DNA of 40,000 bases from Calothrix brevissima NIES-22 (GCA_002367995.1 AP018207.1:7935366-7975365); one strand, 5' to 3'. Positions 2,161 to 31,661 are shown, counted from the first letter of the stretch. Notes: generated by a model not told the origin, from the sequence alone. A program made the numbers and translations.

Positions 2161-2246
2161 GGGCATGGGGCATGGGGTATGGGGCATTGGGTATAATTTT
2201 CCTAGTCTCTAGTTTCTAGCCCCTAGTCCCTAGCCCCTAGTCCCTA
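2161..2246. repeat. STRR arrays (GGGGCAT x4-5, then CCCTAGY x6) in the nifB-1/fdxN-1 spacer
   Basis: Tandem heptamers read directly. Confidence 0.9.
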
Positions 2247-3692
2247 TTTATCTAAGCCTTCGACATATTGCTCGTAATATTCCAAAGCAACTTTTTCAAT
2301 TACGTCGTAAGCTTCAACAGTCTGTATGCCAGCTTTGTGCAGTTCTTCTTTGGGACAGTTCCCAATTTTGGAGACTAAAACCGCTTTGCAATCTGCGATC
2401 GCTTTAATAATATTGTCTAGAGTGGCTTCTTCTCCAAATCCACCTTGGCAATAGTGGTCTATTTTGCGGTGACTGATAAAGCGTACTTCTTGACCATCCA
2501 CTTCGTAAACCTGGAATTCTTTGGCATGACCGAAGTGTTGGTTAACTAATCCACTACCTTTGGTTGCAACAGCAACGAGAATTTTGGGGTTGTTAGCAAA
2601 TTTCTTGCCAGCTTGCGCCTTTTCTTTGGCTGCTTTTATTTCTTGTTTAAACTTCTCAATACCTTCGTGAACTTCTTGACGTTGTTCTAGGTTATATTCC
2701 GGAGCCATTTCTAGGAATTTATCTTTAGTAAATTCTTGGCTGCGGTCTTCTCCTAATAATCCTACAGCATCGGCTCGGCATTGACGACAGTGGCGCATCA
2801 TTTTCATGTTACCAGCACACTGATCTTGAACTTCTTTGAGTTCTTTAGTACTGGGGCCGCGCTGACCGGTTAAACCGAAGTGTGTGCCGTGTTCTGGTGC
2901 AGAAATCAACGGCATGATGTTGTGCAGGAATGCGCCGTTTTCACGAATGAATTTATTTACTTCTACCAAGTGCTGGTCGTTAATTCCCGGAATCATTACC
3001 GAGTTGACTTTACACAAGATATCGGCTTCTTTGAGGGCTTGTAATCCTTCCATCTGCTTTTCTAGCAGAATTCTTGCTCCCTCAACACCTTTATAACGCT
3101 TGCGCTTGTAGTGAACCCAAGAATAAATCTGTGCGCCGATTTCCGGGTCAATTGTGTTAAGGGTAATAGTAACGTGATCTATATTGAGTTGTTTAATGCG
3201 ATCGACATATTCGGTCAGCATCAAACCATTGGTTGATAAGCACAGTTTAATATCTGGCGCTTTATCTGCAATTAGCTCAAAGGTACGGAAAGTTTTTTCT
3301 GGATTCGCCAACGGATCGCCAGGGCCAGCAATTCCCAAGACTGTCATTTGGGGAATCTTACCTGCAATCACCAATACTTTGTGCGCTGCTTCTTCTGGGG
3401 TGAGTAACTCGCTAACCACTCCAGGACGGCTTTCGTTAGCACAGTCATATTTTCGGTTGCAATAGTTGCATTGAATGTTACAGGCGGGTGCGACTGCAAC
3501 GTGCATTCTTGCGTAGTGGTGGTGTGCGTCTTCGCTATAACAGGGATGCTTGGCAATGCGTTCCTTGAGCTTTTCGTTCATTTCCACGGTGGCGTTGCTT
3601 TTGCTGTCGCATCCGCAACCACCTGATTTGGCTTGGGTAGTGGTGGGTTCCTGATTGGAGGAAGTGAGGAGTCCTGTAGACGGTGGTGTCAT
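2244..3692 (-). CDS. nifB: NifB (radical SAM FeMo-co biosynthesis protein with C-terminal NifX-like domain), copy 1
   Basis: [14 protein letters not shown] radical-SAM motif, conserved NifB core, C-terminal NifX-like domain ([21 protein letters not shown]). Start set at the ATG aligning with copy 2 ([11 protein letters not shown]). The track start at 3704 is 4 codons upstream. Confidence 0.95.
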
Positions 3693-4085
3693 TGAATTTC
3701 GCAAGGGTCGGTGGACTGGCTGCCACTGTGAGAGATGCCGTTGCTACTCTTTATGCCTGGGAATTGAAGTCGCGGCTTCTACTCGTTACTCGCAGGAACT
3801 TACTCTGTTGCGGGGTGATGCTGATGATAACATCAAATATAAGAGTAGGGCAGGCTTACAATCCTTGATTTTCGGCTGGTGTGTGTCAACGTTTGGGTCG
3901 TGGGTAGAATTTGTGCGTACTGAAAGCCGCGACTTCTATTCACAGAGGCATGGTGCTATCTCATCCCTCCACTCACTTTTCGCTTTTGTTTAGAAGCGTT
4001 AAGTGATTGGCGATATATGATTTATAGCAGCCATTTTGGCGATCGCCTGGCTGGTATCTAGGATAGAATTTATTGGATTTATTAA

Positions 4086-4400
4086 GCTTGTACTCAATTT
4101 CTGTAAGTCAGATTTTATAAGCATTTCCAGAATTCAAAAACTTTTTTTCGGGTATGGGTTCTAGTGTTTTCTCATTGGGGTACAAGTATTTCTGGAGTGG
4201 GGTACAGGATTTCTTTGTACTCAGCCAAAATCCATAACCCACAAGGCTTACAGCTTAATTTTAGATTATCTTTAGACATAATCATCTGTACTCAAACACT
4301 TCCCCAACCTCACCCAAAGCTAGTAGTGATAGGGAATTGAGGGGGAAAAACTGGAGTAGTCTACGTCGTTCTACTCCAGATACGTGCGAAATTCAATTCT
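4086..4400 (-). promoter_or_regulatory. conserved nifB-1 upstream module (three GTACTCA boxes, three 22-bp-phased GGGTAC-N3-GTATTT units, A/T tract, distal GCGAAATTCAATT box)
   Basis: Motif-by-motif collinear with 30588..30903 upstream of nifB-2, with the same spacings. Function is inferred only (candidate activator-binding array). Confidence 0.5.
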
Positions 4401-4621
4401 GTATCCAACATATCATTTTTTTTTGGGTAAAAATGTAATTCATATTGTTTTAAGATTTCATTAGAAATGATGTGCAATAAAGTTGTGAAAGCTTGCTAGA
4501 TAAGGCTTATAGAATGGTTTACCTATCTATATTAATGCATATAATTCTCAAAAACTTTACTTTTTTCTGGGAATTTTTCTTTTTCTAAAGAAGTCGAAAC
4601 AGGTATATTTACTTGATATTT

Positions 4622-4658
4622 AGTCAACAGTCAACAGTCAACAGTCAACAGTCAACAG
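4622..4658. repeat. STRR array (TCAACAG x5)
   Basis: Tandem heptamers read directly. Confidence 0.9.
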
Positions 4659-4708
4659 CCATTAAACTGTATTCATAGAGAAAAACAGGGTAGCAAGGAG
4701 GAATGGTG

Positions 4709-5653
4709 ATGAAAGCTGTTGTTATCCGCCGATATGGCTCTGCTGAGGTGTTGCAATATGAGGATGTGGAACAACCGACGATTAAACCTGACCAATTACT
4801 TGTGAAAATTCACGCTAGTAGTGTTAATCCTGTTGATTGGAAAATCCGCAAGGGAATGTTGCGATCGCTCATCTGGAAAAAATTCCCGATGATTTTGGGG
4901 TTTGATTTGGCGGGGGAAGTTGTAGAAGTTGGTTCTGCGGTTACAGGTTTTCAGCCTGGAGACGCTATCTATGGAAGTACGGCTGTACCTGGAGGCGCTT
5001 ATGCAGAATTTGCGGCGGTTCCAGCAAGTATAGTTGCTCCTAAACCGACGAATTTAAATTACGAACAAGCAGCTGTAGTTCCTTTGGCTGCGCTCACAGC
5101 TTTGCAAGCGCTACGCGATCAGGGTAATATTCAGTCAGGACAACATGTTTTGATTAATGGCGCTGCTGGTGGTGTAGGCATTTTTGCCGTACAAATTGCT
5201 AAGGCTTTAGGTACTGTGGTGACGGGAGTTTGCAGTACAAAAAACTTGGATTTTGTCAAATCTTTGGGAGCAGATAGGGTAATTGATTATACACAACAGG
5301 ACTTTACCAAAGACATAGAACCCTATGATATTATTTTCGATGTTGTGGGTAAGCGATCGCCTTCTCAATGCAAGGGAGTCCTCAAACCTAATGGGGTATA
5401 CATCACCACCCTACCCAGCGTTGAAAGTTTCGTGCAGAGTATTTTAACAACCTTCCTACCCGGACAAAAGGTCAAATTTATTTTAGAAAAACCCAACACT
5501 CAAGACTTGCTGTATTTAAAAGAGTTGATTGAAGCTGGTAAAATGCGTGTTGTGATTCACCGTACATATCCTTTACAAGAATTAGCAGCCGCCCATACAG
5601 AAAGTGAAACAGAACGTGCTATTGGCAAAATTGCCATCGCTGTTAATCAATAG
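4709..5653 (+). CDS. NAD(P)H:quinone oxidoreductase / zinc-type alcohol dehydrogenase-like (MDR superfamily) protein
   Basis: GAAGGVG dinucleotide-binding motif and MDR-like N-terminal catalytic domain. ATG at 4709 has better spacing to AAGGAGG than the track start at 4703. Confidence 0.85.
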   Translation: MKAVVIRRYGSAEVLQYEDVEQPTIKPDQLLVKIHASSVNPVDWKIRKGMLRSLIWKKFPMILGFDLAGEVVEVGSAVTGFQPGDAIYGSTAVPGGAYAEFAAVPASIVAPKPTNLNYEQAAVVPLAALTALQALRDQGNIQSGQHVLINGAAGGVGIFAVQIAKALGTVVTGVCSTKNLDFVKSLGADRVIDYTQQDFTKDIEPYDIIFDVVGKRSPSQCKGVLKPNGVYITTLPSVESFVQSILTTFLPGQKVKFILEKPNTQDLLYLKELIEAGKMRVVIHRTYPLQELAAAHTESETERAIGKIAIAVNQ

Positions 5654-5682
5654 GGTGATGTAATGAAAATATTGGCGATCGC

Positions 5683-5707
5683 GGTCATTGGTCATTTGTC
5701 ATTGGTA
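5683..5707. repeat. short STRR array (GGTCATT-type)
   Basis: Tandem heptamers read directly. Confidence 0.8.
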
Positions 5708-5733
5708 AATGTTTAAAGTTGATTGAAAAAAAT

Positions 5734-6129
5734 TCAAGTAAAAGGATTAAGTATAGTAATACCGCATCCCTCGAAATCCTTTGTATTTCTTGTAATTAAA
5801 GTAATTTTGTGGATTTCGGCGGTTGCGGCAATTATCATATCAGCTTGAGAGCGCGGTTTTCCTTGAGTTTGTAGATATCCTCTTACTTCACCCGCACGTT
5901 TAGCAACTTCTGGACTGACATCAATGATTTGACAATAAGTTACTACAAAACTATCAAACCAAGTTTGAATTCTGGGATTGGGTTTTGCTGATAAACCGTA
6001 GTAAATTTCTTCTAAAGTGATAGCGCTAATAAAAATTGATGAGATGCTTTGGCTCCAAGCAATGACACCAGGATTAGGTAATGGACGAGCTAATTCACTG
6101 ATAATGTTAGTATCGCAGAGAAAACTCAT
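5734..6129 (-). CDS. vapC: PIN-domain toxin, VapC family
   Basis: MSFLCDTNIISEL... N-terminal acidic PIN motif, about 130 aa, sits 2 nt downstream of a small antitoxin-sized ORF. Confidence 0.85.
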   Translation of the reverse strand: MSFLCDTNIISELARPLPNPGVIAWSQSISSIFISAITLEEIYYGLSAKPNPRIQTWFDSFVVTYCQIIDVSPEVAKRAGEVRGYLQTQGKPRSQADMIIAATAEIHKITLITRNTKDFEGCGITILNPFT

Positions 6130-6131
6130 AA

Positions 6132-6407
6132 TTATTCATCTGCAAATGGAATTGGGCGATCGCTAGAACGTGTAGGGGTTTCTAAAATATAATTTTCTTC
6201 CGCACAGAGTTGACGTAATTCTGTAAAAGCATCTGCGAGGGAAGAGACTTTTTGTTGTTGATGCCAAGCAAGGAACTCTTGAAACAAATGAGGTTCTACA
6301 ATTGCAGCAACTAATTTGTCTTGCTTGAATATTAATTGAGGTTCTAATGCAATAGCATCAATTACCTCTGGTAGCTTTTGTTGTGCTTCGTCCAGTTTCC
6401 AGTTCAT
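6132..6407 (-). CDS. type II antitoxin (Phd/YefM- or VapB-like) paired with VapC
   Basis: 91-aa ORF immediately upstream of and nearly abutting vapC. The family call is positional plus weak similarity. Confidence 0.65.
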   Translation of the reverse strand: MNWKLDEAQQKLPEVIDAIALEPQLIFKQDKLVAAIVEPHLFQEFLAWHQQQKVSSLADAFTELRQLCAEENYILETPTRSSDRPIPFADE

Positions 6408-6469
6408 TGATTTTACAAGAGTAAGTATTAATTGTGAATTTTGTTAGTCAAGCATTAACTTAGCGGCGA

Positions 6470-7165
6470 TTACAAATTATCTGTGTCAATGCCCTGCTGT
6501 TTGAGTTTAGCTAACAACTCTTGATAGCGATCGCGTTCTTTTTGTAATTCCTCTAAAGCTGCTTCCTTTGCTTGGCGTTCTTGTTCCCGTAGCCGATCGA
6601 GTTCTACAGGTGTTAAAAACTTTTGTCCGGCGGGAGAAATAATTTCTAGGGTTTCGGCTGTGAGTTGAAACCGAATTCCTAAACGCGGACTTACCCAATC
6701 ATTCATTTCTTCGATGACTTCAAAACTATCGCCAGAACGGAGTAAGCCATTTAAATCATTCTTAGCCGGATCGTAAATATAATATTCTTCTACGCCGTAA
6801 CGCTGGTAAAACTGCAATTTTTTGGTCATTTCTTTGAGAGTATTACCTGGCGATAGTATTTCAAATACTACCTGGGGCGGAATATTATCTTCCTCCCATT
6901 GTAAATAGGAACCTCGTTTTCCTTTGGGTCTACCAAAGACTACCATCGTATCTGGTGCTTGTTTAATATTCGGGTTTCCTTGAACTGGATACCAAAATAA
7001 ATCTCCGGCGATAAATACATCGACTTGTGATGCAAATAAGATTTCTAAATTTTCTTTAATTTTGACAATCCATGTAAATTGTTCTGTATTATCAGCCACT
7101 GGCTGTCCGTCGCTTTCTGGGTAGATGACTTCGATGGTGGTTTCTGGTGTGACTTGTTGTACCAC
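6470..7165 (-). CDS. Uma2-family (DUF820) putative endonuclease
   Basis: PESDGQP...DLFWYP...PDTMVVFG...VVFEILSPGN...YYIYDP pattern typical of cyanobacterial Uma2 proteins. Apparent GTG start. C-terminal coiled-coil tail. Confidence 0.8.
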   Translation of the reverse strand: MVQQVTPETTIEVIYPESDGQPVADNTEQFTWIVKIKENLEILFASQVDVFIAGDLFWYPVQGNPNIKQAPDTMVVFGRPKGKRGSYLQWEEDNIPPQVVFEILSPGNTLKEMTKKLQFYQRYGVEEYYIYDPAKNDLNGLLRSGDSFEVIEEMNDWVSPRLGIRFQLTAETLEIISPAGQKFLTPVELDRLREQERQAKEAALEELQKERDRYQELLAKLKQQGIDTDNL

Positions 7166-7482
7166 TGCTGCACTTCCAAGTATGGGGTTTTGCTGTTATT
7201 TCTAGTTTAGATAAGGTTGAACCTGTAAATGCATTGCTTTTCAGCAATTTTATGATTGCGTTAGTTGCACAATCCATTGTGAGGGCTGTTGACAGTTAAC
7301 AGCCCATATAAGTAGTTATGCAATTTAGACGCGCATCAGCTTAGAAGTTGGTTAGTTTTGAGCGTGCATCTGCATCTGTTAAGGTTAATTAGTGATTTTT
7401 AATACAATATTTAAAGCTTCACTTAAAGTTCAGTGATTACACTGGTGATAAAACAGACTGCGAGAGGCGAAAGTAAATTTAT

Positions 7483-7496
7483 AAGCAAGCTTGCTT
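7483..7496. promoter_or_regulatory. 14-bp perfect palindrome AAGCAAGCTTGCTT, 35 bp upstream of the small peptide ORF (possible operator)
   Basis: Perfect dyad read directly. The regulatory role is inference. Confidence 0.3.
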
Positions 7497-7530
7497 GTTT
7501 GTAAATTCACCAAAAAAAGAGTAACAATAA

Positions 7531-7695
7531 ATGCAAAGTATCAAAGCATTTTTGGGATCTAAATTTGAAATTGTGCCTGAAATGGCTGAAGGTCACATAG
7601 AATTGACCGAAGCTCAAATGGAAATGCTAAATGGTGGAGAAGAAGGTGAAGGTGGAGACGGGCCACCACCTCCTCCTCCAGAAGAAGGCACTTGA
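7531..7695 (+). CDS. 54-aa peptide: N-terminal region ending ...ELTEAQMEMLNGG, then acidic/Gly/hexaproline tail EEGEGGDGPPPPPPEEGT (candidate RiPP precursor)
   Basis: Hand translation gives MQSIKAFLGSKFEIVPEMAEGHIELTEAQMEMLNGGEEGEGGDGPPPPPPEEGT*. It is below the track's apparent length cut-off (shortest track ORF is 61 aa). Same strand as and 200 bp upstream of the ATP-grasp gene. SD is weak. Confidence 0.45.
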   Translation: MQSIKAFLGSKFEIVPEMAEGHIELTEAQMEMLNGGEEGEGGDGPPPPPPEEGT

Positions 7696-7799
7696 TAAGT
7701 AGAGGAAGACGTACTCTTTAAATAGATTACGAATTCAGTATAGGTGAATAGATTGCCTAGCAATTGAAATCTTCACTCTATTCGTTATTTTAATAGTAC

Positions 7800-7841
7800 A
7801 AAGCCAGTAGCTTACTTCTTTCAGGAGTACTGCTGGCTTTT
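7800..7841 (+). terminator. terminator/attenuator-like hairpin between peptide ORF and ATP-grasp gene
   Basis: AAAGCCAGTAG / CTGCTGGCTTT form an 11-bp stem (one G-U) followed by TTTTG. Confidence 0.4.
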
Positions 7842-7895
7842 GCTCATGTTATCTATATGTCATGCTGAAAATATAAATCAAAAGGAAAAGGAATA

Positions 7896-9731
7896 ATGCG
7901 TTCTATTGGTATCTGCTTTGTCCAGCAAAACCTTCAGCAGATTGGTTATGAAACTTACCAACTTTTCATAGAAGCAGAAAAGCACTATGAGCGCATTATC
8001 CCTATTAATAATCCTCGCTCTATTAGCTATCAATTTATTGAAGGAAATAGCAAACCTAAAGTTATTTTGGATGGACAAGACATCTCAAACCTTGATACCT
8101 TGCTTTTTCGTCAAGGAGGACAGCGTAAATTACCAGCTATTTTTTTGGCACAGACGTTAAATCAGTGTGGTTGTGACATTCTAGATTCTATAGCATGGTA
8201 TACCCCCGAACGAGGTTCTAAGTTAGGTGGAATTCTCAAATATCTAAATCAGGGTTGCGGAATTAATACATACATCGCATTTACCCGAAACAATGGCGCA
8301 GCCTTACTACAAGATTTGGCAAACAATGGGAAATTTCCGCTTATCCTCAAGCCGGTTCATGGTAGCCAAGGTAGAGGAATTCATGTAATTGAAGATCTAG
8401 AAACAGGCTTAGAACTCCTCGATGCTTTTTATGATGATGAACAAGAAAGGGATGAACCTTTCTACTTACAGGAATTTTTGAACATTGAAAAAGAATATCG
8501 AGTTGTTGTTTTAGATGGTAAAGCTATAGGAGCAGCCCAAAAAATAGCTGCTCCTGGGAAGCACACAGCGAATGCTGCACAAGGCGGAACTTTTGTTGCT
8601 GCTGATGTTCCAAATGTGACTGCTGTTACCCTTGAGAATGTAACTAGCAAAGGACTATTTGGCGTAGATGTAGCAGTCGATCAACAAGATAATATTCGGA
8701 TTATTGAGGTAAATCGCATTCCTCAATGGAAAGCATTCAGTGAGGCTACAGGAATCAATGTTGCTCAAGCTATTTTAGAGAACACCCTAGAACAAAATTC
8801 AACAAAATCGGCATTAGGTATTCTCATGCCTAGTAACAGTTATAATCTGCCTTATGAGCTAGATAATTTATATAAAGAAGCACCTAATTATTACAAAGAG
8901 ATTATTTCCATTGAAACTCTTCATTCTATAATTTATAAATTTGTTCGTGGCTCGGAAAAACCCAGCATTTTAATGGGATCAATGGATCTGTCTCTTCTTG
9001 ATACCTGCATTATTCGTGAGAGTCAAAATAGCCCCATTGCCAAAATGCTTCTCGTTCATGCACTTAACGCTTCTGGATGTAACATTATCGATCCCGTTAC
9101 CCATCATTCAGGAGGAGCGGCTTCTAAATTAGGAATCACATTGCGTTATTTCAGAACTGGTTTAGTACCTAGCAATTATGTTGTATTTAACCGCACTAAT
9201 GCCATTAATCTGCTTGAGGAATTGGTAAAAGAAGGGCAACTTCCATTAATTAGCAAAGATATTTTGGGCAGCCAAGGACAGAATGTTGACATTATTACCG
9301 ATATTAGTACCGGAATGCAGATTATTGAAGCTTTTTATCAAAGTGAGGAGGAGAAAGACTATCCTTTTTACTTGCAAACATTAATTCAGATAGAAAAAGA
9401 ATATCGAATTATGTTACTGGACGGTAAAGCAATTGGTATAGCTGAAAAAATACTGAATACCGATCGGGACAATGCAAAAACTTTTGCTGATTATCAGTTT
9501 TGTGCTATTGAAGCATTGGCGATCGCAGAAAAGGTTATTCCTTATGTTAGCCCTAAAGGATTATTGGGAGTCGATATTGCGGTTGATTTTTCGGGCGATC
9601 TCTTTATCCTTGATGTAAATCGTGAACCTGTATGGTACGCATTTGAACAAACAACAGGAGTTAACGTGGCGGCAAAAGTAATTGAGCGGGGTTTAGAACG
9701 TTTAGCTGACAAAGCGCTTCCAGTTGCTTGA
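7896..9731 (+). CDS. fused tandem RimK-type ATP-grasp protein (two modules)
   Basis: Module 1: LILKPVHGSQGRGIHVIED, EYRVVVLDGKAIGAAQK, ANAAQGG, GVDVAV...IIEVNRIPQW. Module 2 repeats the layout: LISKDILGSQGQNVDIITD, EYRIMLLDGKAIGIAEK, GVDIAV...ILDVNREPVW. ATG is preceded by AAGGAA. Confidence 0.8.
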   Translation: MRSIGICFVQQNLQQIGYETYQLFIEAEKHYERIIPINNPRSISYQFIEGNSKPKVILDGQDISNLDTLLFRQGGQRKLPAIFLAQTLNQCGCDILDSIAWYTPERGSKLGGILKYLNQGCGINTYIAFTRNNGAALLQDLANNGKFPLILKPVHGSQGRGIHVIEDLETGLELLDAFYDDEQERDEPFYLQEFLNIEKEYRVVVLDGKAIGAAQKIAAPGKHTANAAQGGTFVAADVPNVTAVTLENVTSKGLFGVDVAVDQQDNIRIIEVNRIPQWKAFSEATGINVAQAILENTLEQNSTKSALGILMPSNSYNLPYELDNLYKEAPNYYKEIISIETLHSIIYKFVRGSEKPSILMGSMDLSLLDTCIIRESQNSPIAKMLLVHALNASGCNIIDPVTHHSGGAASKLGITLRYFRTGLVPSNYVVFNRTNAINLLEELVKEGQLPLISKDILGSQGQNVDIITDISTGMQIIEAFYQSEEEKDYPFYLQTLIQIEKEYRIMLLDGKAIGIAEKILNTDRDNAKTFADYQFCAIEALAIAEKVIPYVSPKGLLGVDIAVDFSGDLFILDVNREPVWYAFEQTTGVNVAAKVIERGLERLADKALPVA

Positions 9732-10186
9732 CGATAACTAAAAGTAACCCCGAAATTTCCAATTTTATTCATAAAACCATAAATAATTATAACATTGTCC
9801 GCATCAGTATTTGTAGATGTTTTACTTACTGATAATTATTCAGTTTGGCAAGATGAAAGATTAACAGCAGAATCCCCCGTCTTCCTGCTGACCGAATTTT
9901 AGATTTTAAATAATGGAATTGAAACTTCAAAATTTTTAATTTTTGTGAGCAAAAATAGAGTTTTTTGCTCGTCTTCGTAACAAAAATAAATAATTATTGT
10001 GGCTCAGAAATCTTCCTGAAGATAGTGTTTTTGTCTGACTGCTCAGGCAATATTTACTAAGAATGGTTTTTTTGGAGAGTAATTTTCACAGTAACAAATA
10101 GCAATAAAATCCCAAAATCAATTGAATTTGAGGCAGATAGCAAATTAACTTATATTACAAAGTCTGGTGATTACAAGGAGAAAGCG

Positions 10187-10681
10187 ATGCCTGCTATAGC
10201 TCTAAATAGCCAAAATCTCCCCTACTCCGACCCCTTACACCCGATTGTTGTGCATTTCGTGATTGCAATGGTGTTTTTCTCATTATTTTGCGATGTGGTG
10301 GGTTATTTCACTCGAAATGCAGGTTTGTTGGAGGTCGGTTTTTGGAATATGTTTGTGGCAGCGATCGCAATTTTTGTCGCGATCATTTTTGGGCAGTTGG
10401 AAGCCGGTTTAGCGCAAGTGTATCCAGCAGTCCAGTCTACAATGAATTTTCACACAGTTATGGGTTGGTCGCTTGGGGCGATAATTGCGGCTATTACAGC
10501 TTGGCGTTTAATCATTCGCGATCGCAACCCCCTGAAAGTTCCTCCTGCTTACCTGGGTGTAGCAACTTTATTAATTTGTCTGGTGTTCTTGCAGGTATAT
10601 TTGGGAAGCAAATTATTTTGGGTATATGGGTTGCATGTTGAACCTGTGGTGCAAGCCATGCAGCAGGGAGTTTCGCCATGA
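10187..10681 (+). CDS. multi-TM membrane protein, DUF2231-like, first gene of the cox operon
   Basis: LHPIVVHFVIAMVF motif and four predicted TM helices. AAGGAG RBS. Stop overlaps the next start (ATGA). Confidence 0.65.
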   Translation: MPAIALNSQNLPYSDPLHPIVVHFVIAMVFFSLFCDVVGYFTRNAGLLEVGFWNMFVAAIAIFVAIIFGQLEAGLAQVYPAVQSTMNFHTVMGWSLGAIIAAITAWRLIIRDRNPLKVPPAYLGVATLLICLVFLQVYLGSKLFWVYGLHVEPVVQAMQQGVSP

Positions 10682-11283
10682 ATTCTCAACTCCTTGACTC
10701 TTTAGGATTGAGATTAGGCGCTAACGGATTACCATACGAAATTCCTCTGCATCCACAGTTAGTCCATTTCACCTTGGGTTTGTTTATCATCGGCATCTTG
10801 TTTGATATAGCAGGCGCTATTTTTCCGGTTGAAAGACCAATTTTCAAATTTTTAGCTCTTCCCGCCATCCGTTCTGGCTTCTTTAATGTCGGTTGGTACA
10901 ACCTGTTAGGAGCAGCTGTGGTGACATTTTTTACCGTCGCCTTTGGCTTTTTCGAGCTACTGCTAGCAAACCCACTATTAGATAAAAAAAGTGCTTGGGG
11001 ATTAAATGCCTCCTGGACAATGCTTTTGCATGGTTTGGGCGGTGTTTTCTTGTTGACAGTGATTGTGGCGATGACTGTCTGGAGAGGCTTACAACGCTAT
11101 CGCTGGCGCAAGAATGCTTCCAGACAAGTGCAGTGGAGTTACTTATTAGCAGGTATTGCCATTTTAGGGATTTTGTATGTTCACGGAACTTTAGGCGCAC
11201 ATTTAGGAGAGGCGTTTGGCATTCACGTAACAGCAGCTCAGTTAATCCAAGAGGGCAAAAACCCAAATTTACTAACCAAATAA
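10678..11283 (+). CDS. multi-TM membrane protein, DUF2231-like paralogue
   Basis: LHPQLVHFTLGLFI motif and TM helices. Translationally coupled to the upstream paralogue. Ends 6 nt before coxB. Confidence 0.65.
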   Translation: MNSQLLDSLGLRLGANGLPYEIPLHPQLVHFTLGLFIIGILFDIAGAIFPVERPIFKFLALPAIRSGFFNVGWYNLLGAAVVTFFTVAFGFFELLLANPLLDKKSAWGLNASWTMLLHGLGGVFLLTVIVAMTVWRGLQRYRWRKNASRQVQWSYLLAGIAILGILYVHGTLGAHLGEAFGIHVTAAQLIQEGKNPNLLTK

Positions 11284-11289
11284 AATATT

Positions 11290-12219
11290 ATGGGGAGATT
11301 TTTAGAATATATACTCATAGCTGCTTATATTGCCGTCCTGCTTGTTGTCAGTCATGGGATTGGGCAGTTAGCTTATTCTTGGATGCCTCTGGAAGCTACA
11401 GCCGAAGCGCAAAAGGTAGATAGTTTATTTAGCTTTTTAACCTCAATTGGTGCGTTCATTATTCTTGGGCTTCTAGGCATGATGCTGTACTCGGTAATTT
11501 TCTTTCGCGCACCCAAAAATGATTACAGTGAAGGACATCCATCTAGAGGCGATGTCAAACTCGAATTTTTATGGACGGCGACTCCAACCATACTGGTATT
11601 GTGGATTGCTTTCCAAGGCTTCAATATTTATCAGCAATTAGATATTCTCGGTTTGCAGCAAATCGTACATTTGCATACACCTCTAGATTCAGAACCAGCC
11701 TATGCAGCAGCTAGCGCAGACCAACTTAAACCAGCAGCTGAAACTGTTGAGGTTTTCGTCAAGCAGTGGGATTGGACTTTTCGCTATCCCAATAATATTA
11801 CTAGCAATGAATTGCATTTACCTGTAAATCTTCGGACTCGACTGAATATGCACGCTCAGGACGTACTTCATAGTTTTTATGTCCCTGAGTTCCGCTTACA
11901 ACAGTATATTGTGCCTGGACGAAACATTGACCTTGTAGTTACACCGACTCGTACAGGTGAATACAAACTCAAAGATGCATTATTTAGCGGTACTTACTTT
12001 GCTTTGATGGATGCCAATGTTCAAGTGGAATCCCTTGACCAATATAACCAGTGGCTGAGTCAAGCCCAACAAAAACCAACAACCATTAAAAATCAAGCTG
12101 TCGCTGAATATACCCAACCGCCAAAAACATTCTTTAAGAGCAACTGGTACAGTGTTGCACCTGCTCAAGAAGCGATCGCCAATGAAAGGAAAGAAAGGAA
12201 AGTAATGAATGACACATGA
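11290..12219 (+). CDS. coxB: heme-copper oxidase subunit II lacking CuA ligands (ARTO / quinol-oxidase-type CoxB)
   Basis: DVLHSFYVPEFRLQQYIVPGR is present. Where CAELCGxxHxxM is expected the sequence reads KDALFSGTYFALM, so both Cys and the second His are replaced. Confidence 0.9.
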   Translation: MGRFLEYILIAAYIAVLLVVSHGIGQLAYSWMPLEATAEAQKVDSLFSFLTSIGAFIILGLLGMMLYSVIFFRAPKNDYSEGHPSRGDVKLEFLWTATPTILVLWIAFQGFNIYQQLDILGLQQIVHLHTPLDSEPAYAAASADQLKPAAETVEVFVKQWDWTFRYPNNITSNELHLPVNLRTRLNMHAQDVLHSFYVPEFRLQQYIVPGRNIDLVVTPTRTGEYKLKDALFSGTYFALMDANVQVESLDQYNQWLSQAQQKPTTIKNQAVAEYTQPPKTFFKSNWYSVAPAQEAIANERKERKVMNDT

Positions 12220-12378
12220 ATCTCAGGAAATGATCGCCATTGAGCAAGAGTCTAGTGGTCTGTCCCATTAATTTTGAGTGGTAAAAAACGAACCGCGTTC
12301 GACGAAGTCGTTCCCGCAGGGTAGACACGAAGTACTCGAAGGAAGAGACAAGAAGAAGAAACTTACCCCACATAATTA

Positions 12379-14013
12379 ATGAGACAAAGCACTAGTAATA
12401 ACTGGCGACAATATTTTAGCTTTAGTACTGACCATAAAGTAATTGGCGTTCAGTACATGGTGACGACTTTCATATTCTTTCTGATTGGCGGACTTTTGGC
12501 GATGCTGATCCGTGCCGAACTGATTACGCCAGCATCAAATGTAGTCGATCGCTCCCTGTACAACGGCTTGTTTACTTTGCATGGGACAATCATGATTTTT
12601 TTATGGATTATCCCATTCAATGCAGGTATCTCTAACTACTTAGTACCTCTGATGATTGGCGCACGAGATATGGCGTTTCCTCTCCTCAATGCCATATCTT
12701 TCTGGATAATTCCTCCCAGTGGACTGTTATTAATATCTAGCTTCTTTTTACCCAATGGTACAGCCCAGTCTGGTTGGTGGTCTTATCCGCCAATTAGTCT
12801 GCAAGTTCCTCCCAATCAGCCAATTAACGGTGAATTTATTTGGATTGTAAGTATAGTCCTGATTGGTATCTCTTCGGTTATGGGGGCTGTCAACTTTGTG
12901 ACCACTATCTTTTGGATGCGGGCACCAGGAATGACATTTTTCCGAATGCCTGTGTTTGTTTGGTCGGTTCTCAGCGCCCAGTTGTTGCAGCTAGTGAATT
13001 TGCCTTCTTTAACTGGTGCATTAATCCTACTGTTATTTGACCTCAACTTTGGGACGAATTTTTTCAAACCTTTAGAAAATGGCGACCCCATCATTTACCA
13101 GCATTTATTCTGGTTCTACTCCCACCCTGCAGTGTATATCATGGCACTACCAGCCTTCGGGATTTTTGCGGAAATTTTACCAGCCTTTTCCCGTAATCCT
13201 TTATTTGGCTATCGCTCATTAGCGATCGCCTCTTTAGGCATTGCGGTAGTTAGCATCTTTGTCTGGGTGCATCATATGTTCACCAGTGCTACCCCTGGTT
13301 GGATGCGGATGTTATTTATGGTGACATCAATGTTAGTTGCTGTACCCACTGGTGTAAAAGCATTTGGTTGGACTGCGACAATTTGGAGAAGTAAGCTGCA
13401 TTTAGAAACACCCATGCTATTTGCAATGGGAGGTGCAGCCATGTTTCTGCTTGGTGGTGTCACTGGTGTCATGCTAGCAGCAGTACCATTTGATATTCAC
13501 GTTCATAATACCTACTTTATAGTCGGGCATTTTCACTACATTGTCTTTAACACCATCACAATGGCAATCTTTGCTGCCATTTACTTTTGGTTTCCCAAGA
13601 TAACTGGACGAATGTATGCAGAAGGCTGGGGAAAGGTACATTTTTGGTTAACCTTTATCGGTGCTAACCTAACTTTCTTCCCGATGCTTCCACTAGGTTT
13701 ACAAGGAATGGTACGCCGCATTTCCTCCTACGATCCGCGTTATCAAGGATGGAATGTTGTTGCTAGTTTGGGAGGATTTTTATTAGGAGTATCAATACTA
13801 CCTTTTATTGCCAATATGGTAGGTTCTTGTTTATACGGGCAAAAAGCCAGTAACAATCCCTGGCTCGCCACAGGGCTGGAATGGACAACTACCTCACCCC
13901 CTCCCCGAGAAAACTTTGAAGAAATACCAATTGTCAAAAGACCCCCTTATGACTATGGCGATACTAAATACTCAGTAATTGAACCTCCCGACTATCATCA
14001 GGCAAGGGAGTAG
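12379..14013 (+). CDS. coxA: heme-copper oxidase subunit I
   Basis: HLFWFYSHPAVYI, VWVHHMF and GHFHYIV metal-ligand motifs, 12 TM-type hydrophobic pattern. Confidence 0.95.
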   Translation: MRQSTSNNWRQYFSFSTDHKVIGVQYMVTTFIFFLIGGLLAMLIRAELITPASNVVDRSLYNGLFTLHGTIMIFLWIIPFNAGISNYLVPLMIGARDMAFPLLNAISFWIIPPSGLLLISSFFLPNGTAQSGWWSYPPISLQVPPNQPINGEFIWIVSIVLIGISSVMGAVNFVTTIFWMRAPGMTFFRMPVFVWSVLSAQLLQLVNLPSLTGALILLLFDLNFGTNFFKPLENGDPIIYQHLFWFYSHPAVYIMALPAFGIFAEILPAFSRNPLFGYRSLAIASLGIAVVSIFVWVHHMFTSATPGWMRMLFMVTSMLVAVPTGVKAFGWTATIWRSKLHLETPMLFAMGGAAMFLLGGVTGVMLAAVPFDIHVHNTYFIVGHFHYIVFNTITMAIFAAIYFWFPKITGRMYAEGWGKVHFWLTFIGANLTFFPMLPLGLQGMVRRISSYDPRYQGWNVVASLGGFLLGVSILPFIANMVGSCLYGQKASNNPWLATGLEWTTTSPPPRENFEEIPIVKRPPYDYGDTKYSVIEPPDYHQARE

Positions 14014-14016
14014 AGG

Positions 14017-14078
14017 GCAGGGGGACAAGGGGGACAAGGGGGACAAGGGGGACAAGGGGGACAAGGAGGACAAGGGGG
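14017..14078. repeat. tandem nonamer array (GGGGGACAA x6-7)
   Basis: Read directly in the coxA-coxC spacer. Confidence 0.9.
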
Positions 14079-14088
14079 AAAATTGTAC

Positions 14089-14108
14089 AGACGCGATTCA
14101 TCGCGTCT
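14089..14108. repeat. dispersed hairpin AGACGCGA-TTCA-TCGCGTCT (copy 1 of 2)
   Basis: Identical hairpin with the same AATTGTA-AG 5' flank at 34005..34024. Both follow nonamer arrays. Confidence 0.8.
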
Positions 14109-14115
14109 CTGATAA

Positions 14116-14802
14116 ATGACTAATGACCAAAATATGAACCGTGGCGTAATTCATGTAGATGAAAGTCCTATCCCTTTAGAACGGTTGCGGCGATACCTAC
14201 CAAATTGGCTCAAGCGTTTTTTGCCAGTGCGGGGTGGAAGTGCTGAAGATCATCATGGTAAAGGGATGTTCGGATTTACCGTGTTTCTATTATCAGAAAG
14301 CATAGTCTTTTTGAGCTTTATTTTTACCTACATTGCTCTGCGATTAACACATTCAGGAAATTGGCTACCATCTGGTGTTTCGGGGCCAGAATTGTCTACT
14401 TTTGTAATTATTAATACGGTGGTGTTACTTTGTAGCAGCTTTGTGATTCAGCCAGCAGAAAATGCTCTCAAACATGGCAGGTTAGTGAGGTTTCGTTGGC
14501 TGTGGTTGATGACAATTTGTATGGGAACCTATTTCTTAATCGGTCAAGGAATTGAGTGGAGCAACCTTAATTTTGGGTTAAGTACAGGTTTAGTTGGTGC
14601 GACATTTTATGTATTAACAGGTTTTCACGGTCTACATGTTCTCACTGGTGTCATTCTACAAATTACTATGCTTGTTCGCTCCTTCAGACAAGGGAACTAC
14701 GAAAAAAGCCACTTTGGTGTGAGTGCTAGCACTTTGTTTTGGCACTTTGTTGATCTAATGTGGATTTTTCTTTTCTCTCTTCTCTATCTTTGGCAAGCTT
14801 AA
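14116..14802 (+). CDS. coxC: heme-copper oxidase subunit III
   Basis: FYVLTGFHGLHVLTGV and FWHFVDLMWIFLF motifs. Confidence 0.9.
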   Translation: MTNDQNMNRGVIHVDESPIPLERLRRYLPNWLKRFLPVRGGSAEDHHGKGMFGFTVFLLSESIVFLSFIFTYIALRLTHSGNWLPSGVSGPELSTFVIINTVVLLCSSFVIQPAENALKHGRLVRFRWLWLMTICMGTYFLIGQGIEWSNLNFGLSTGLVGATFYVLTGFHGLHVLTGVILQITMLVRSFRQGNYEKSHFGVSASTLFWHFVDLMWIFLFSLLYLWQA

Positions 14803-14946: not shown

Positions 14947-15246
14947 TTAAACCAAATAAGGTTCTTGGTGAGTGCGAATCGTGCAATCAGAACGGGGATA
15001 GGAGACACAAAGAACAATAAAGCCTTTAGCCATCTGATCGTCATCGAGAAATACCTGCTCAGTTTGATCTACTTGTCCTTCAACCACTTTAGCAACGCAA
15101 CTAGAACAAGAACCAGATTGACAGGAAAAGGGTAATTCTATATCTTGTTGTTCTGCCGCATCGAGAATACTGGTATTTTTATCAACAGGGATGGTGATAT
15201 CGAGCGATCGCTTTTTATTGATTAGTCTGACTTGATAAGTTGTCAT
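14947..15246 (-). CDS. fdxH: plant-type [2Fe-2S] ferredoxin, heterocyst FdxH-like
   Basis: [12 protein letters not shown]...[19 protein letters not shown]...[21 protein letters not shown]. Start set at the ATG giving about 99 aa. The track start at 15261 is 5 codons upstream. Confidence 0.9.
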
Positions 15247-15282
15247 CTTCATGTCCTCCAAAATAAAATCAGGTTTTGAGTA

Positions 15283-15654
15283 TCAGCTACAAGGTACGCC
15301 AGCAGGGCTGCAATTCCCTGCTTGGAATGATTTTCCACAGCCACAGGTATCTGTAGCGTTGGGATTGCTAAACTTAAATCCGCTTTCTAGCAAGCCATCA
15401 ATAAAATCCACAACCACACCTTCTAGTAATGGGGCACTTTGGGAATCAACATAGATGCGTAACTTACCTTGTTGCAAAACTATGTCATCGGCTTGGGGAG
15501 TATTGATTACTTTGATGGAATACTGGTAGCCACTGCAACCACCATCCTCAACAGCAACACGGATACCTTTTTGAGTAGTATTTTCATCTTTGCTTGAGGC
15601 TAAAAGGAAGGTACGCAGCCGAAATTCTGCTGCTTCCGTTAAAGTTAACGTCAT
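15283..15654 (-). CDS. hesB: HesB/IscA-type Fe-S cluster assembly protein
   Basis: A-type carrier fold with C-terminal CGCGKSF motif. Position between hesA and fdxH. Confidence 0.9.
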   Translation of the reverse strand: MTLTLTEAAEFRLRTFLLASSKDENTTQKGIRVAVEDGGCSGYQYSIKVINTPQADDIVLQQGKLRIYVDSQSAPLLEGVVVDFIDGLLESGFKFSNPNATDTCGCGKSFQAGNCSPAGVPCS

Positions 15655-15666
15655 AAAATCTACCTA

Positions 15667-15701
15667 CTGACAACTGACTATTGACTATTGACTATTGACT
15701 A
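15667..15701. repeat. STRR array (TATTGAC-type) containing the hesA stop codon
   Basis: Tandem heptamers. The HesA C-terminus ...VLVNSQ* is read from the array. Confidence 0.85.
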
Positions 15702-16482: not shown

Positions 16483-16586
16483 TGTTGATTTCTCCTGTTT
16501 TGAAGGGGCTAGGGACTAGGGGCTAGGAATAGCCCTTTCAAAGTGCATACATTTACAAGAACTTCTTCACTCTGCGTCTCTGTGAA

Positions 16587-16622
16587 CTCTGCGGTTAAAA
16601 AATAATTTATATAACCGCAGAG
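16587..16622. repeat. dispersed palindromic element CTCTGCGGTTA...TAACCGCAGAG (copy 1 of 2)
   Basis: 11-bp perfect arms. A related copy with similar flanks (GAGAACACAGAG) lies at 39534..39565. Confidence 0.8.
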
Positions 16623-16648
16623 GGCGCGGAGAACACAGAGAAAGAGAT

Positions 16649-28758: not shown

Positions 28759-28789
28759 GGTCAACAGTCAACGGTCAACAGTCAACAGT
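28759..28789. repeat. STRR array (TCAACRG) containing the nifB-2 stop codon
   Basis: The NifB-2 tail ...EKTVDC* and its TGA are read from the heptamer array. Confidence 0.85.
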
Positions 28790-30235
28790 TTTCTCTAACC
28801 CTTTGATATACTGGTTGTAAAATTCCAAAGCCACTTTTTCGATTACGTCGTAGGCTTCAACTGTCTGTAAACCAGCTTTCTGCAATTCTTCTTGAGGACA
28901 GTGACCAATTTTAGAAACCAGAACTGCTTTGCAATCGGAGATAGCTTGAATAATGTTGTCTAAAGTCGCTTCCTCACCATATCCACTTTGACAGTAGTGG
29001 TCAATTTTGCGATGACCGACAAATTTAGCGCTGCTACCATCCACTTCGTAAACCATAAACTCTTTCGCGTGACCGAAGTGCTGGTTAACTAAACCACCGC
29101 CTTTGGTAGCGACTGCAACTAATATTTTGGGTCTGTTCTTGAGAGTTGTTGTTTGCAACGTCTCTACAGCTTTTTCTTTGGTGGCTTTGATTTCTTGTTG
29201 CGATTTCTCTATCTGTGCATGGACTTCTTGGCGTTGCTCCAAATTATATTCTGGAGCCATTTCCATGAATTTATCTTTGGTAAATTCTTGACTGCGGTCT
29301 TCACCTAATAAACCTACCGCATCGGCGCGACATTGACGACAATGGCGCATCATTTTCATATTACCAGAACATTTATCTTGTACTGTTTTCAATTCTTTAG
29401 GATTGGGGCCGCGTTGACCAGTCAAACCAAAGTGAGTACCGTGTTCTGGGGCAGAAATCAAGGGCATAATATTATGCAAGAATGCACCCTTGGAACGAAT
29501 GACTTCGTTGACTTCTACCAAGTGTTCATCGTTAATTCCCGGAATCATTACCGAGTTAACTTTGCACAGAATATCTGCTTCTTGGAGAGCTTGCAATCCT
29601 TCCATCTGCTTTTCATGCAGAATGCGGACACCTTCAATACCTTTGTAGCGTTTGCGGTTGTAGTGAACCCAAGGATAAATTTTCGCGCCGATTTCTGGGT
29701 CTACCATATTAATAGTTATGGTGACATGATCGATATTCAGTTGCTTAATCCGATCTACATAATCGGGAAGCATTAATCCGTTGGTTGATAGGCAAAGTTT
29801 GATATCTGGTGCTTTATCGGCAATTAACTCGAAGGTGCGGAAGGTTTTTTCTGGATTCGCTAGGGGATCTCCCGGGCCTGCAATTCCCAAAACTGTCATT
29901 TGGGGAATTTTTCCAGCAATCACTAAAACTTTGTGTGCTGCTTCTTCTGGTGTGAGCAATTCGCTCACTACACCAGGACGACTTTCGTTAGCACAATCAT
30001 ATTTGCGGTTGCAATAATTACATTGAATGTTGCAAGCTGGTGCAACTGCAACGTGCATCCTTGCATAGTGGTGGTGTGCTTCTTCGCTATAGCATGGATG
30101 TTTCTCAATCCGCGCTTTCATTTTTTCATCTAAGCTAGTTGTGGTATCAGTTTTGCTACTGCAACCACAACTACTAGATTTAGTTTTAGTTTCCGTGGGA
30201 GCTGATGTTAGGAGTCCTGTAGGTGGTGGTGTCAT
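28775..30235 (-). CDS. nifB: NifB, copy 2 (head of the main nif cluster)
   Basis: [14 protein letters not shown] and the full NifB core plus NifX-like C-terminal domain. Long stretches are identical in protein to copy 1. Confidence 0.95.
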
Positions 30236-30587
30236 TGAATTTCGCTTACCTTGGGGATAAAGGACTGGCGTTATACAAGATGCTTTTGTTCGCTCTCAGT
30301 CAAAAATTAAAGTCGCGTTTTACTGTGAGAATTGCCTATTCTAGTTAGATAAACTTAGACTTTTGGCTAGTTTTTCCGCTTGGGGGACTGGGATAAATTG
30401 GGGTTTAAAGCAGCGACTTTGATTCATAGAGATGATTGCTAGAAACTTGGATAGCGATCGCTTTTAAGTTTTTAGCAATACATTTGTGTTAGTGCTTTAA
30501 GTGTTGAGTGATACATGTTTTATTTATACCAGTCACTTGGAAAGAGGAAATTGCTGGTGTTTTTTATAATTTATTAAATTTATTACC

Positions 30588-30903
30588 CTTGTACTCAAAA
30601 TCTACAACGCAGAATTAGCAAGGTTTACGTAGATTTTAAAAAAACTTTTTAGGTATAGGTACTAGTATTTATTCCCTGGGGTACGAGTATTTATAGCGAA
30701 GGGGTTCAAGTATTTTTGTACTCGCCTAAAACTCAATACTAGCTTGAGTTTGAGTGTAATTTTAAGTTTGTTTTTGCTGTTGTTCAATCTGTACTCAGAT
30801 TGCTTGCGATCGCTCTTTTGACCGCTCTTTACTTACGTTTTTTTGAGAGAAATAACTGGAGCAGTAAGCAAACACTACCCCAGTGGCTAAGCGAAATTCA
30901 ATT
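30588..30903 (-). promoter_or_regulatory. conserved nifB-2 upstream module (same architecture as 4086..4400)
   Basis: GTACTCA/GTACTCG boxes at 30591, 30717 and 30791. GGGTAC-type units at 30657, 30679 and 30702. GCGAAATTCAATT at 30891. Confidence 0.5.
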
Positions 30904-31544
30904 CCGTATCTAAAATAACACTTTTTCCCGTAAAAAAACTATCCTTAAAATAACTTTATTGAAAATTGTGTTTCCATATACAGACGAGCTATTTTCAGAC
31001 TAGCGATTTGCGATCGCGCCACATTAGTAGAATTGGTTGTAAATACACCTTAAATGAGTTTACAGTCTTGATAAATAAAGTGTTTGGCTTACAAGCGACT
31101 TAACAGCACTAGTAGTTGAGTTACTAAATTTTTGTGCTTTTTTAGCAAGTATAGCATACACTAAGCAAAAATTTTTGCAATGCAAAGTCTGAATATTTGC
31201 ACTTTCCGGCATTAATGTATATACAGATACAGAAATTTCTAGCCAGAATAGCCTAATAGAATCTCTCTAAGAGAATATCCGATTACTTTTGAGGAAATCC
31301 GTTTTAATCCAGCGAAATAAGTGATTTTTTGGAGTTTCTTAATATAAAAGGAAAGGCAAAAATTTTCCGCCAATTAACAAAAAAATACTAGATGGTAGCT
31401 GGATATACAGAAAAAAACTTTTCTATAAATAATCTCTGTAATGACAAATGAGTAGATATAAAGATATTCAAAAACTTATGACAGAGATACCTACAAAACC
31501 CGCCTGCTGTAAGGCTTTATCTGTAGTCAATAACTACTCAATTG

Positions 31545-31661
31545 ATAGCCCGAACGATACAGTACCCATAATTAGAAAATACTAGTACCCTCATGTGAAA
31601 AAAAGTTTTTTAAATTTGTAAATTCTGATGCTATCGGAATTGATAAGAATTGAGTACAAGC
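31545..31661 (+). promoter_or_regulatory. third, inverted copy of the proximal part of the nifB upstream module, facing the nifVZT side
   Basis: The reverse complement reads GCTTGTACTCAATT...AAAAAACTTTTTTTC...GGGTACTAGTATTTT...GGGTACTGTATCG. The 14 nt GCTTGTACTCAATT is identical to 4086..4099. Confidence 0.45.

Follow-up and report, generated by a model that had tools for sequence, protein, structure and literature searches.

Two copies of nifB, nifB-1 and nifB-2, lie in a 40,000-nucleotide stretch of Calothrix brevissima NIES-22 (GCA_002367995.1 AP018207.1:7935366-7975365; hereafter the window, with positions counted from its first letter), and each is preceded by the same ordered set of short motifs. 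An initial annotation described this set as a single module of about 315 bp. The shared set does occur at both loci, but the distal boxes ('GCGAAATTCAATTC-GTATC' and 'CTGGAG') suggested a separate unit, and the module very probably consists of two adjacent functional units: a CnfR activator region and a small transcription unit. Judged by sequence, the proximal unit is the upstream activating region of an extended -10, -35-less nifB promoter with the published CnfR-dependent architecture. The distal unit is most likely a small independent transcription unit. Its RNA may pair with the nifB start region, which would make it a candidate small RNA (sRNA) of about 57 nt, or anti-start-codon RNA, present in most diazotrophic cyanobacteria and co-evolved paralog by paralog; the probability of this reading is put at roughly 45%. 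Both genes are on the minus strand, and the upstream motifs are therefore read as reverse complements: in gene sense, GTACTCA becomes TGAGTACA and GGGTWC..GTRTTT becomes AAAYAC-N2-GWACCC.

The case for such an RNA begins with the complementarity between a conserved stretch of the distal unit (the seed) and the nifB translation start. Each seed is an exact complement of the start region of its own gene, over 13 nt for nifB-1 and 15 nt for nifB-2, with flanks that are specific to each paralog (CGCA/TGCG versus CGCTTA/TAAGCG). A search of the window for the 14-nt core of the distal box, allowing two mismatches, returned only the distal and start sites and one same-sense match with two mismatches at 34703-34716. 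The predicted duplex between seed and own leader reaches -21.2 kcal/mol for nifB-1 (6 of 300 shuffles as good) and -27.0 kcal/mol for nifB-2 (0 of 300).

Complementarity of this kind extends well beyond the window. A scan with NifB-1, taking one genome per species, gave 80 nifB loci, and at least six distinct complementary seed/start pairs were found among the lineages, the seed and the start region changing together. Most Nostocales carry ATTGAATTTCGC/GCGAAATTCAAT, while Crocosphaera, Lyngbya and Limnoraphis carry ATTGAATTCCGT/ACGGAATTCAAT. Further pairs are ..TTTCGG/CCGAAA.. (loci L047 and L064), ..CGCT/AGCG.. (L013, L059 and nifB-2), ..CGCAA(A)/(T)TTGCG.. (L043 and L046), TTGAATTCCGTGA/TCACGGAATTCAA (L061), TGAAATTCCGTGGT/ACCACGGAATTTCA (L079), GAATTCCGTGG/CCACGGAATTC (L078) and GAATGAATTCCA/TGGAATTCATTC (L068). 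Across 61 distinct combinations, the mean duplex energy is -14.4 kcal/mol for cognate and -11.7 kcal/mol for non-cognate pairs, and none of 10,000 permutations, a test that ignores the relatedness of the sequences, reaches the cognate mean. Divergent seed variants rank their own start partner 0th to 4th of 61.

The complementary sequences could have a different role. Exact inverted repeats of 12-15 bp bracket the whole promoter in both paralogs, and might flank an invertible segment of about 690 bp that switches nifB on and off; rearrangement of nif DNA is known in heterocystous cyanobacteria (PMC11249958). Such an arrangement is very improbable, given that all 75 loci with the module show the same 'on' orientation and that no recombinase gene is adjacent to either copy in the window. 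It would also leave unexplained the -10-like element and the hairpin with its T-run that lie beside the repeat.

These neighbouring elements have the layout expected of a short transcript. In an alignment of 75 loci, the distal 75 bp or so comprise an A-tract, the element TG-n-TA-nn-Y-T, an invariant GATACAGAAT, a conserved stretch of 12-15 nt, a variable linker, a conserved stem (CTGGAGTAG/CTACTCCAG) whose loop is free in length and sequence, and a T-run, all in nifB sense. The extended -10-like element (TGnTAnnYT) precedes GATACAGAAT by 6-8 nt, and the small transcript of nifB-1 is predicted to start at about 4400-4404. The combined promoter and start pattern TGNTANNYTNNNYACRRA occurs twice in the window, both times upstream of nifB, against 0.11 expected. 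Among the 80 loci, 71 have one copy, three have two and six have none, always on the nifB strand.

The hairpin had been recorded as a 'CTGGAG-AGT box'. That box is present, but it is really one arm of a 9-bp inverted repeat, CTGGAGTAG-N11-CTACTCCAG, with its nifB-2 counterpart at 30856..30883. Predicted folding energies are -20.2 kcal/mol (z = -3.1) for nifB-2, which a terminator scan called terminator-like, and -14.1 kcal/mol (z = -1.5) for nifB-1. Across 41 sequences the hairpin is 93% paired, and 37 single changes of the G.U type keep the pairing only on the nifB-sense strand; the fold is slightly better in sense than in antisense. Within the window, no gene on the same strand lies upstream that would require a terminator at this place. 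A small coding sequence was also considered: an open reading frame (ORF) of 38 aa spans 4361..4477, and was rejected as it has no counterpart upstream of nifB-2.

Some further copies of the distal unit were seen. In three related Nostocales loci (L006 at 1541, L008 at 1560 and L010 at 1531), a second distal promoter/5' element lies about 250 bp farther upstream; the sequence that follows it differs, and it is not complementary to the nifB start. A metagenome scan with the promoter/5' motif gave 120 matches, mostly due to chance, with six true copies and no new seed types. One metagenomic contig (L126, 3158-3230) has a well-formed unit with seed ATTGAATTCCGTG, a hairpin and T8, followed by a probable transposase fragment (by translation alone), with neither nifB nor a TGAGTACA box within 7.9 kb. 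Either an insertion left this unit behind as a remnant, or the copy is free-standing.

Several observations weigh against an sRNA, beyond the disregard of relatedness in the permutation test. Covariation in the hairpin is slight (5 double changes in 41 sequences), and the T-run, good in Nostocaceae, is weak (ATTTCC) in many other taxa. Complementarity is weakened or lost in A. variabilis nifB2 and about ten other lineages. In the lichen-Nostoc clade (GCGAAACTCA), where pairing with the start is likewise weakened or lost, the best match moves to a leader site near -78 (CAGAATTGAA/TTCAATTCTG). The stem and GATACAGAAT are conserved beyond the needs of a terminator or a start site, which fits a protein-binding site too. 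Finally, the sRNA catalogue of Nostoc sp. PCC 7120, based on differential RNA sequencing (PMC4734099, Table S3), lists nothing between 1,752,847 and 1,795,979. The nifB gene of that strain is at about 1.7766-1.7781 Mb (PMC3898017 supplement, Picossi 2014), and thus no supported sRNA was called there in cells grown on ammonium or kept for 8 h without nitrogen. The predicted sRNA 1795979r of the same table was rejected as a candidate, being some 17 kb from nifB. Rfam gave nothing meaningful for the whole window at gathering thresholds or for 4250-4500 at E<=10, and the seed sequences GCGAAATTCAAT and ATTGAATTTCGC, searched in full text, brought up unrelated papers only. No sRNA upstream of nifB was found in the accessible literature, some key papers lying outside it.

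Another possibility is that the whole 315 bp form a single protein-binding enhancer, in which the inverted repeat and GATACAGAAT are sites for CnfR, NtcA or another protein, and the copy at the start codon is a second site involved in DNA looping. This explanation appears unlikely, if far from negligible. In its favour, sequence conservation across orders extends to the stem arms and GATACAGAAT, and in the lichen-Nostoc clade GATACAGAAT and the -10-like element stay intact where the seed decays. In addition, a strong NtcA peak in chromatin immunoprecipitation sequencing is listed as 'upstream far' of PCC 7120 nifB (summit 1778735, range 1778601-1778860; PMC3898017 supplement), an estimated 620 bp or so upstream of the ATG, corresponding to the zone of the distal unit and box 1A. 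The peak could reflect NtcA control of the distal unit, or the distal block could itself be a protein site.

A protein-site enhancer does not, however, predict complementary box/start pairs that are specific to lineages and shift in register, nor flanks that match within each paralog. Equally, the length and sequence of the hairpin loop vary freely, and the distal element contains no GTA-N8-TAC box for NtcA. An NtcA box was rejected as a reading of the distal -10 element, its left half-site TGnT being unfit. Nor does the element, TG(A/T/C)T-N8-TACA, have the features of an NtcA class II promoter, whose GTA-N8-TAC box is centred near -41.5 of a TAN3T -10: it overlaps the -10-like hexamer, and no conserved hexamer follows 22 nt downstream.

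An anti-start-codon RNA would act on a long and structured leader. The leader of nifB-1 is predicted to fold with -91.6 kcal/mol (z = -3.3). This predicted fold leaves the nifB start region unpaired, so that a seed paired there would be expected to block initiation. Within the leader, GAAUAGAAGUCGCGGCUUU near the 5' end and AAGCCGCGACUUCAAUUC near -80 form a long stem, whose arms are conserved in nifB-2 and in A. variabilis. The block CCACAGTGGCAGCCAGTCCACCGACC, directly before the nifB start codon, is conserved across Nostocales.

The proposed RNA would run from about 4402 to 4346 (nifB-1) and from about 30907 to 30845 (nifB-2), transcribed from the extended -10 with a start near GATACAGAAT. 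Its 5' seed of 12-15 nt would pair over -13/-11 to +2 of the cognate nifB mRNA, and would be followed by the hairpin and a U-run. While nifB transcripts are at a low level, pairing might block their translation, until transcription driven by CnfR outnumbers the RNA. The result would be a threshold, or fail-safe, against leaky synthesis of NifB under oxygen or fixed nitrogen, and the gate could possibly be relieved once NtcA occupies the region. As a variant, the same pairing might act in cis, on read-through transcripts from the distal promoter.

Another reading is that the module is itself transcribed leader RNA, with the main nifB transcription start site (TSS) upstream of it. The initial annotation had named this as an outcome that would undo its promoter reading, and the element at 4407-4415, upstream of the boxes, is indeed promoter-like. 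The idea is nevertheless highly doubtful for the main nifB promoter. The primary TSS of A. variabilis nifB1 is at -328 from the start codon, according to 5' rapid amplification of cDNA ends dependent on tobacco acid pyrophosphatase (PMC4284476), and that of PCC 7120 nifB is at -282, according to primer extension and RNA-seq. The conserved extended -10 at 4021-4029 fits the A. variabilis site, and the hairpin with its T-run sits between the distal promoter and the boxes. By homology to these mapped sites, the TSS of nifB-1 is predicted at about 4014, placing the boxes some 75-280 bp upstream of it, and the proximal module is taken to be promoter DNA rather than leader.

The proximal unit can be identified from its published counterparts. 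In CnfR, an XRE-type DNA-binding domain is combined with two 4Fe-4S-binding motifs. Promoters of nifB and nifP that depend on CnfR (PatB) are reportedly the subject of work by Tsujimoto in 2016 and Vernon in 2017. The regions upstream of A. variabilis nifB1 and nifB2, when aligned, share TGAGTA(C)A at three conserved places and, besides it, another conserved motif that is repeated; an extended -10 is present as well (Thiel & Pratte 2014; PMC4284476, Figs 11-12). The boxes have been named 1A, 1B and 1C (TGAGTACA), and the A/C-rich motifs between 1B and 1C have been named 2A and 2B (Pratte & Thiel 2021, PMC8510180; preprint 10.1101/2025.04.01.646610). In Anabaena variabilis and Leptolyngbya boryana, both sets are needed for CnfR-dependent transcription of nifB. 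When 1A or 1B is lost, nifB1 transcription falls to half; when the 2A/2B equivalents of L. boryana nifB are mutated, activation by CnfR in Synechocystis is abolished; and purified CnfR binds fragments with the box and motif regions (PMC8510180; 10.1101/2025.04.01.646610). Further work deals with the genetics of, and binding to, the nifB promoter (10.64898/2026.01.15.699626). By analogy with these orthologous promoters, CnfR would bind the proximal elements and switch on nifB and the downstream nif operon at low oxygen and under nitrogen limitation. The suggestion of a multimeric activator site, probably for CnfR, is thus borne out by the match between the proximal motifs and published cis-elements, the three phased units corresponding to the 2A/2B region. 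No cnfR-sized gene is present among the ORFs of the 40-kb window, which counts against this identification. The proximal architecture is already known, and the window is a new instance of it.

In the window, the motif positions reported upstream of both genes were recovered, with some corrections to their content. The GTACTCA boxes are placed as described, but the middle box of nifB-2 (30717) reads GTACTCG. The repeat units start at 4156/4178/4200 and 30657/30679/30702 as given, but their inner spacer is N2 rather than N3. Most units follow the proposed consensus; the exceptions are unit 4200 of nifB-1, which is degenerate (GGGTAC-AG-GATTTC), and unit 30657, which starts with AGGTAC. Start to start, the 1A-1B and 1B-1C spacings are 71 and 127 bp in nifB-1 and 73 and 127 bp in nifB-2. 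Seven copies of TGAGTACA occur in the window against 0.96 expected, a number that none of 100 shuffles reaches; five are within the two nifB modules, and one is in a third, partial module (31651). The A/T tract is probably a DNA bend. A promoter scan of both nifB upstream regions found no -35/-10 pair.

Order and spacing are also maintained between the paralogs despite diverged surroundings, as had been claimed: in the alignment of the two upstream regions, the blocks are 59-100% identical, and the spacers and flanks 28-32%. Footprinting beyond the window leads to the same conclusion, and decisively contradicts the case, named in the initial annotation as refuting, that relatives lack the motifs upstream of nifB. 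About 75 of the 80 nifB loci, or of 82 cyanobacterial nifB upstream regions overall, have the same elements in the same order, namely the distal box, 1A, 1B, three AAATAC-N2-GTACCC units, the A-tract/T-tract, 1C and the extended -10, and the three repeat units are visible in the 75-sequence consensus. The 1A-1B distance is 71 bp in 41 of 62 loci, the 1B-1C distance is 126-128 bp in most, and the distance from 1C to the extended -10 is 66-67 bp in 63 of 75. Loci with the module span Nostocales, Oscillatoriales, Chroococcales (Crocosphaera) and Synechococcales/Leptolyngbya-like taxa. Since order and spacing are kept in 75 other loci, the architecture is far beyond chance. It could, in principle, be functionless residual homology from the duplication that gave rise to nifB-1 and nifB-2, the genes being paralogs with 83% protein identity. 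This can be dismissed almost entirely: the spacers have fallen to 28-32% identity while the blocks persist, the same blocks and spacings occur in distant orders, and published mutations of the boxes alter expression (PMC8510180; 10.1101/2025.04.01.646610).

The proximal unit therefore has close relatives among known promoters. It shares with the CnfR promoters of A. variabilis ATCC 29413 nifB1/nifB2, PCC 7120 and L. boryana the three TGAGTACA boxes, the A/C-rich repeats between 1B and 1C, the extended -10 without a -35, the long leader (about 320 nt) and the place before nifB. The nifB-2 upstream region aligns box for box with that of A. variabilis nifB2, and, as in A. variabilis, a reverse-oriented partial module faces divergent nifV/nifZ genes. 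In contrast to the published systems, the divergent operon of the window begins with nifV, three repeat units are visible where two have been named (2A/2B), a nif1-type nifB is only 26 kb away from the whole nif2-type cluster, and the organism differs, the closest NifB proteins being those of Calothrix sp. FACHB-1219 and Nostoc carneum NIES-2107. There is a broader resemblance to proteobacterial upstream activating sequences for NifA and sigma-54, as generally described, in the several activator sites more than 100 bp upstream, the A/T-rich presumed bend and the control by oxygen and nitrogen. However, the promoter in the window is of the sigma-70 type with an extended -10, and its activator is an XRE-type protein with ferredoxin-like Fe-S motifs rather than an enhancer-binding ATPase. 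The motifs TGAGTACA and AAATAC-N2-GTACCC are unrelated to the TGT-N10-ACA of NifA.

For the distal unit, the nearest parallels are sRNAs. Like NsrR1 and NsiR4 of Nostoc, which are described as acting at start regions, it would be a short RNA made from a promoter of its own, with a terminator hairpin and with a 5' seed that is single-stranded and complementary to a start-codon region, all of them predicted here. Elsewhere, sRNAs that act on nif mRNAs include NfiS and NfiR of Pseudomonas stutzeri and sRNA154 of Methanosarcina mazei. Unlike all of these, the distal unit lies directly upstream of the activator sites of its own target and is duplicated with each nifB paralog. It also differs in being conserved far beyond heterocystous strains, in lacking an Rfam family and in its absence from the PCC 7120 catalogue.

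In cyanobacteria, the proximal module is the master switch for the expression of nitrogenase. With nif1- and nif2-type nifB genes only 26 kb apart, the window offers a natural pair for the specificity of CnfR1 versus CnfR2, but no new principle. Its added value is the dissection of the distal boxes as a candidate anti-start-codon sRNA unit, a hypothesis with comparative support drawn from sequences. If true, masking of the start codon by such an RNA would add to nif control a layer that had not been described before and that is conserved across cyanobacterial orders, and would provide a post-transcriptional gate on the first gene of the nitrogenase operon. It might also bear on reports that expression of nifB2 (and nifP) needs sequences from the 5' end of the gene, and on the transplanting of cyanobacterial nif clusters, where the nifB upstream region moves along with the genes. 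In A. variabilis nifB2 (L202), the distal seed ATTGCATTTTGC and the hairpin 3' arm CTATTGCAG are partly degraded relative to the window, and experiments there may therefore under-report any function of the distal unit.

Table 1. Positions of the nifB genes, the proximal and distal units and the third, partial module in the window.
Feature	Position	Strand	Sequence or remark
nifB-1 coding sequence	2244..3692	minus	true ATG 3692..3690; ORF list began at TTG 3704
nifB-1 translation start region	3691..3703	minus	TGCGAAATTCA-AT(G); exact complement of seed 4385..4397
nifB-1 5' leader, predicted	3693..4014	minus	~320 nt; TSS inferred from extended -10 and A. variabilis -328
nifB-1 extended -10	4021..4029	minus	TGCTATAAA; no -35
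nifB-1 proximal unit	4086-4294	minus
nifB-1 box 1C	4089..4096	minus	TGAGTACA
nifB-1 A7-G-T5 tract	4136..4148	minus	AAAAAAAGTTTTT; conserved
nifB-1 three phased units	4156..4213	minus	22-bp period; published motif 2A/2B region (preprint 10.1101/2025.04.01.646610)
nifB-1 unit c	4156..4169	minus	AAACACTAGAACCC
nifB-1 unit b	4178..4191	minus	AAATACTTGTACCC
nifB-1 unit a	4200..4213	minus	GAAATCCTGTACCC; degenerate
nifB-1 box 1B	4216..4223	minus	TGAGTACA
nifB-1 box 1A	4287..4294	minus	TGAGTACA
nifB-1 distal unit	4346-4424	minus
nifB-1 T-run	4346..4350	minus	TTTTT
nifB-1 hairpin	4351..4379	minus	CTGGAGTAG-N11-CTACTCCAG; with T-run, terminator-like in nifB sense
nifB-1 seed	4385..4397	minus	ATTGAATTTCGCA
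nifB-1 invariant element	4396..4405	minus	GATACAGAAT
nifB-1 A-tract and extended -10-like element	4407..4424	minus	-10-like TGATATGTT at 4407..4415
nifB-2 coding sequence	28775..30235	minus	nif2 type
nifB-2 translation start region	30234..30248	minus	TAAGCGAAATTCA-AT(G); exact complement of seed 30888..30902
nifB-2 extended -10	30523..30531	minus	TGGTATAAA
nifB-2 proximal unit	30588-30797	minus
nifB-2 activator module	30590..30797	minus
nifB-2 box 1C	30590..30597	minus
nifB-2 A5GT7 tract	30638..30650	minus
nifB-2 unit c	30657..30670	minus	period of units 22-23 bp
nifB-2 unit b	30679..30692	minus
nifB-2 unit a	30702..30715	minus
nifB-2 box 1B	30717..30724	minus	CGAGTACA
nifB-2 box 1A	30790..30797	minus
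nifB-2 distal unit	30845..30920	minus	tail TATTTCTCTC
nifB-2 hairpin	30855..30884	minus	12 pairs
nifB-2 seed	30888..30902	minus	ATTGAATTTCGCTTA
nifB-2 invariant element	30901..30910	minus	GATACGGAAT
nifB-2 distal extended -10	30912..30920	minus	TGTTATTTT
Third, partial module	31556..31660	plus	toward nifV (32200+) and nifZ (33481-33747)
Third module, first part		plus	CAGTACCC
Third module, second part	31577..31590	plus	AAATACTAGTACCC
Third module, A7GT6 tract	31597..31611	plus
Third module, box	31651..31658	plus	TGAGTACA

The third module has two GTACCC units and one TGAGTACA box, with no clear 1A or 1B, and A. variabilis has its equivalent, in reverse orientation, between nifB2 and nifZ2 (L202). 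Upstream of it, TGTATATACAGATACAGAAA (31213-31235, plus strand) resembles the distal promoter/5' element TGATATGTTGGATACAGAAT. No terminator hairpin follows this element, and its complementarity to start regions downstream is not significant, 48 of 300 shuffles doing as well.

The two nifB genes belong to different types of nif cluster. NifB-1 matches a cluster representative, the NifB of Calothrix sp. FACHB-1219, at 99% identity, and its start ATGACACCACC is homologous in 80 loci, which supports the ATG at 3692..3690. NifB-2 is 91% identical to A. variabilis NifB2 (ABA23843.1). A single ORF of 963 aa at 18123-21014 (minus strand) occupies the expected place of nifE and nifN in the second cluster (14947-30235), and this cluster is therefore read as nif2-type; by its position, the ORF would match the fused nifEN2 described for the nif2 cluster of A. 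variabilis. The window comes from a relative of Calothrix sp. FACHB-1219, Nostoc carneum NIES-2107 and Calothrix sp. NIES-2100. No nifS lies downstream of nifB-1 and fdxN-1 (1849-2187). Similarity to Nostoc carneum NIES-2107 stops at about 1817, and the next ORFs are on the opposite strand and have no family match; the segment 1-1848 could be an inserted element, an excision element or a nif1 cluster that has been broken.

The interval between the nifB genes (4703-14802) contains a quinone oxidoreductase-like gene, a Uma2-family endonuclease gene, genes for two DUF2231 membrane proteins and a gene for a RimK-type ATP-grasp protein (611 aa), as well as coxB-coxA-coxC (11290-14802). A VapC toxin gene (5734-6129) is also present, with a small ORF upstream that may encode its antitoxin. 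Heptamers are repeated in tandem at two places, AGTCAAC five times on the plus strand near nifB-1 (4620-4660) and TTGTCAG four times upstream of nifV (31725-31760). Both resemble short tandemly repeated repetitive (STRR) sequences, which are typical of heterocystous cyanobacteria.

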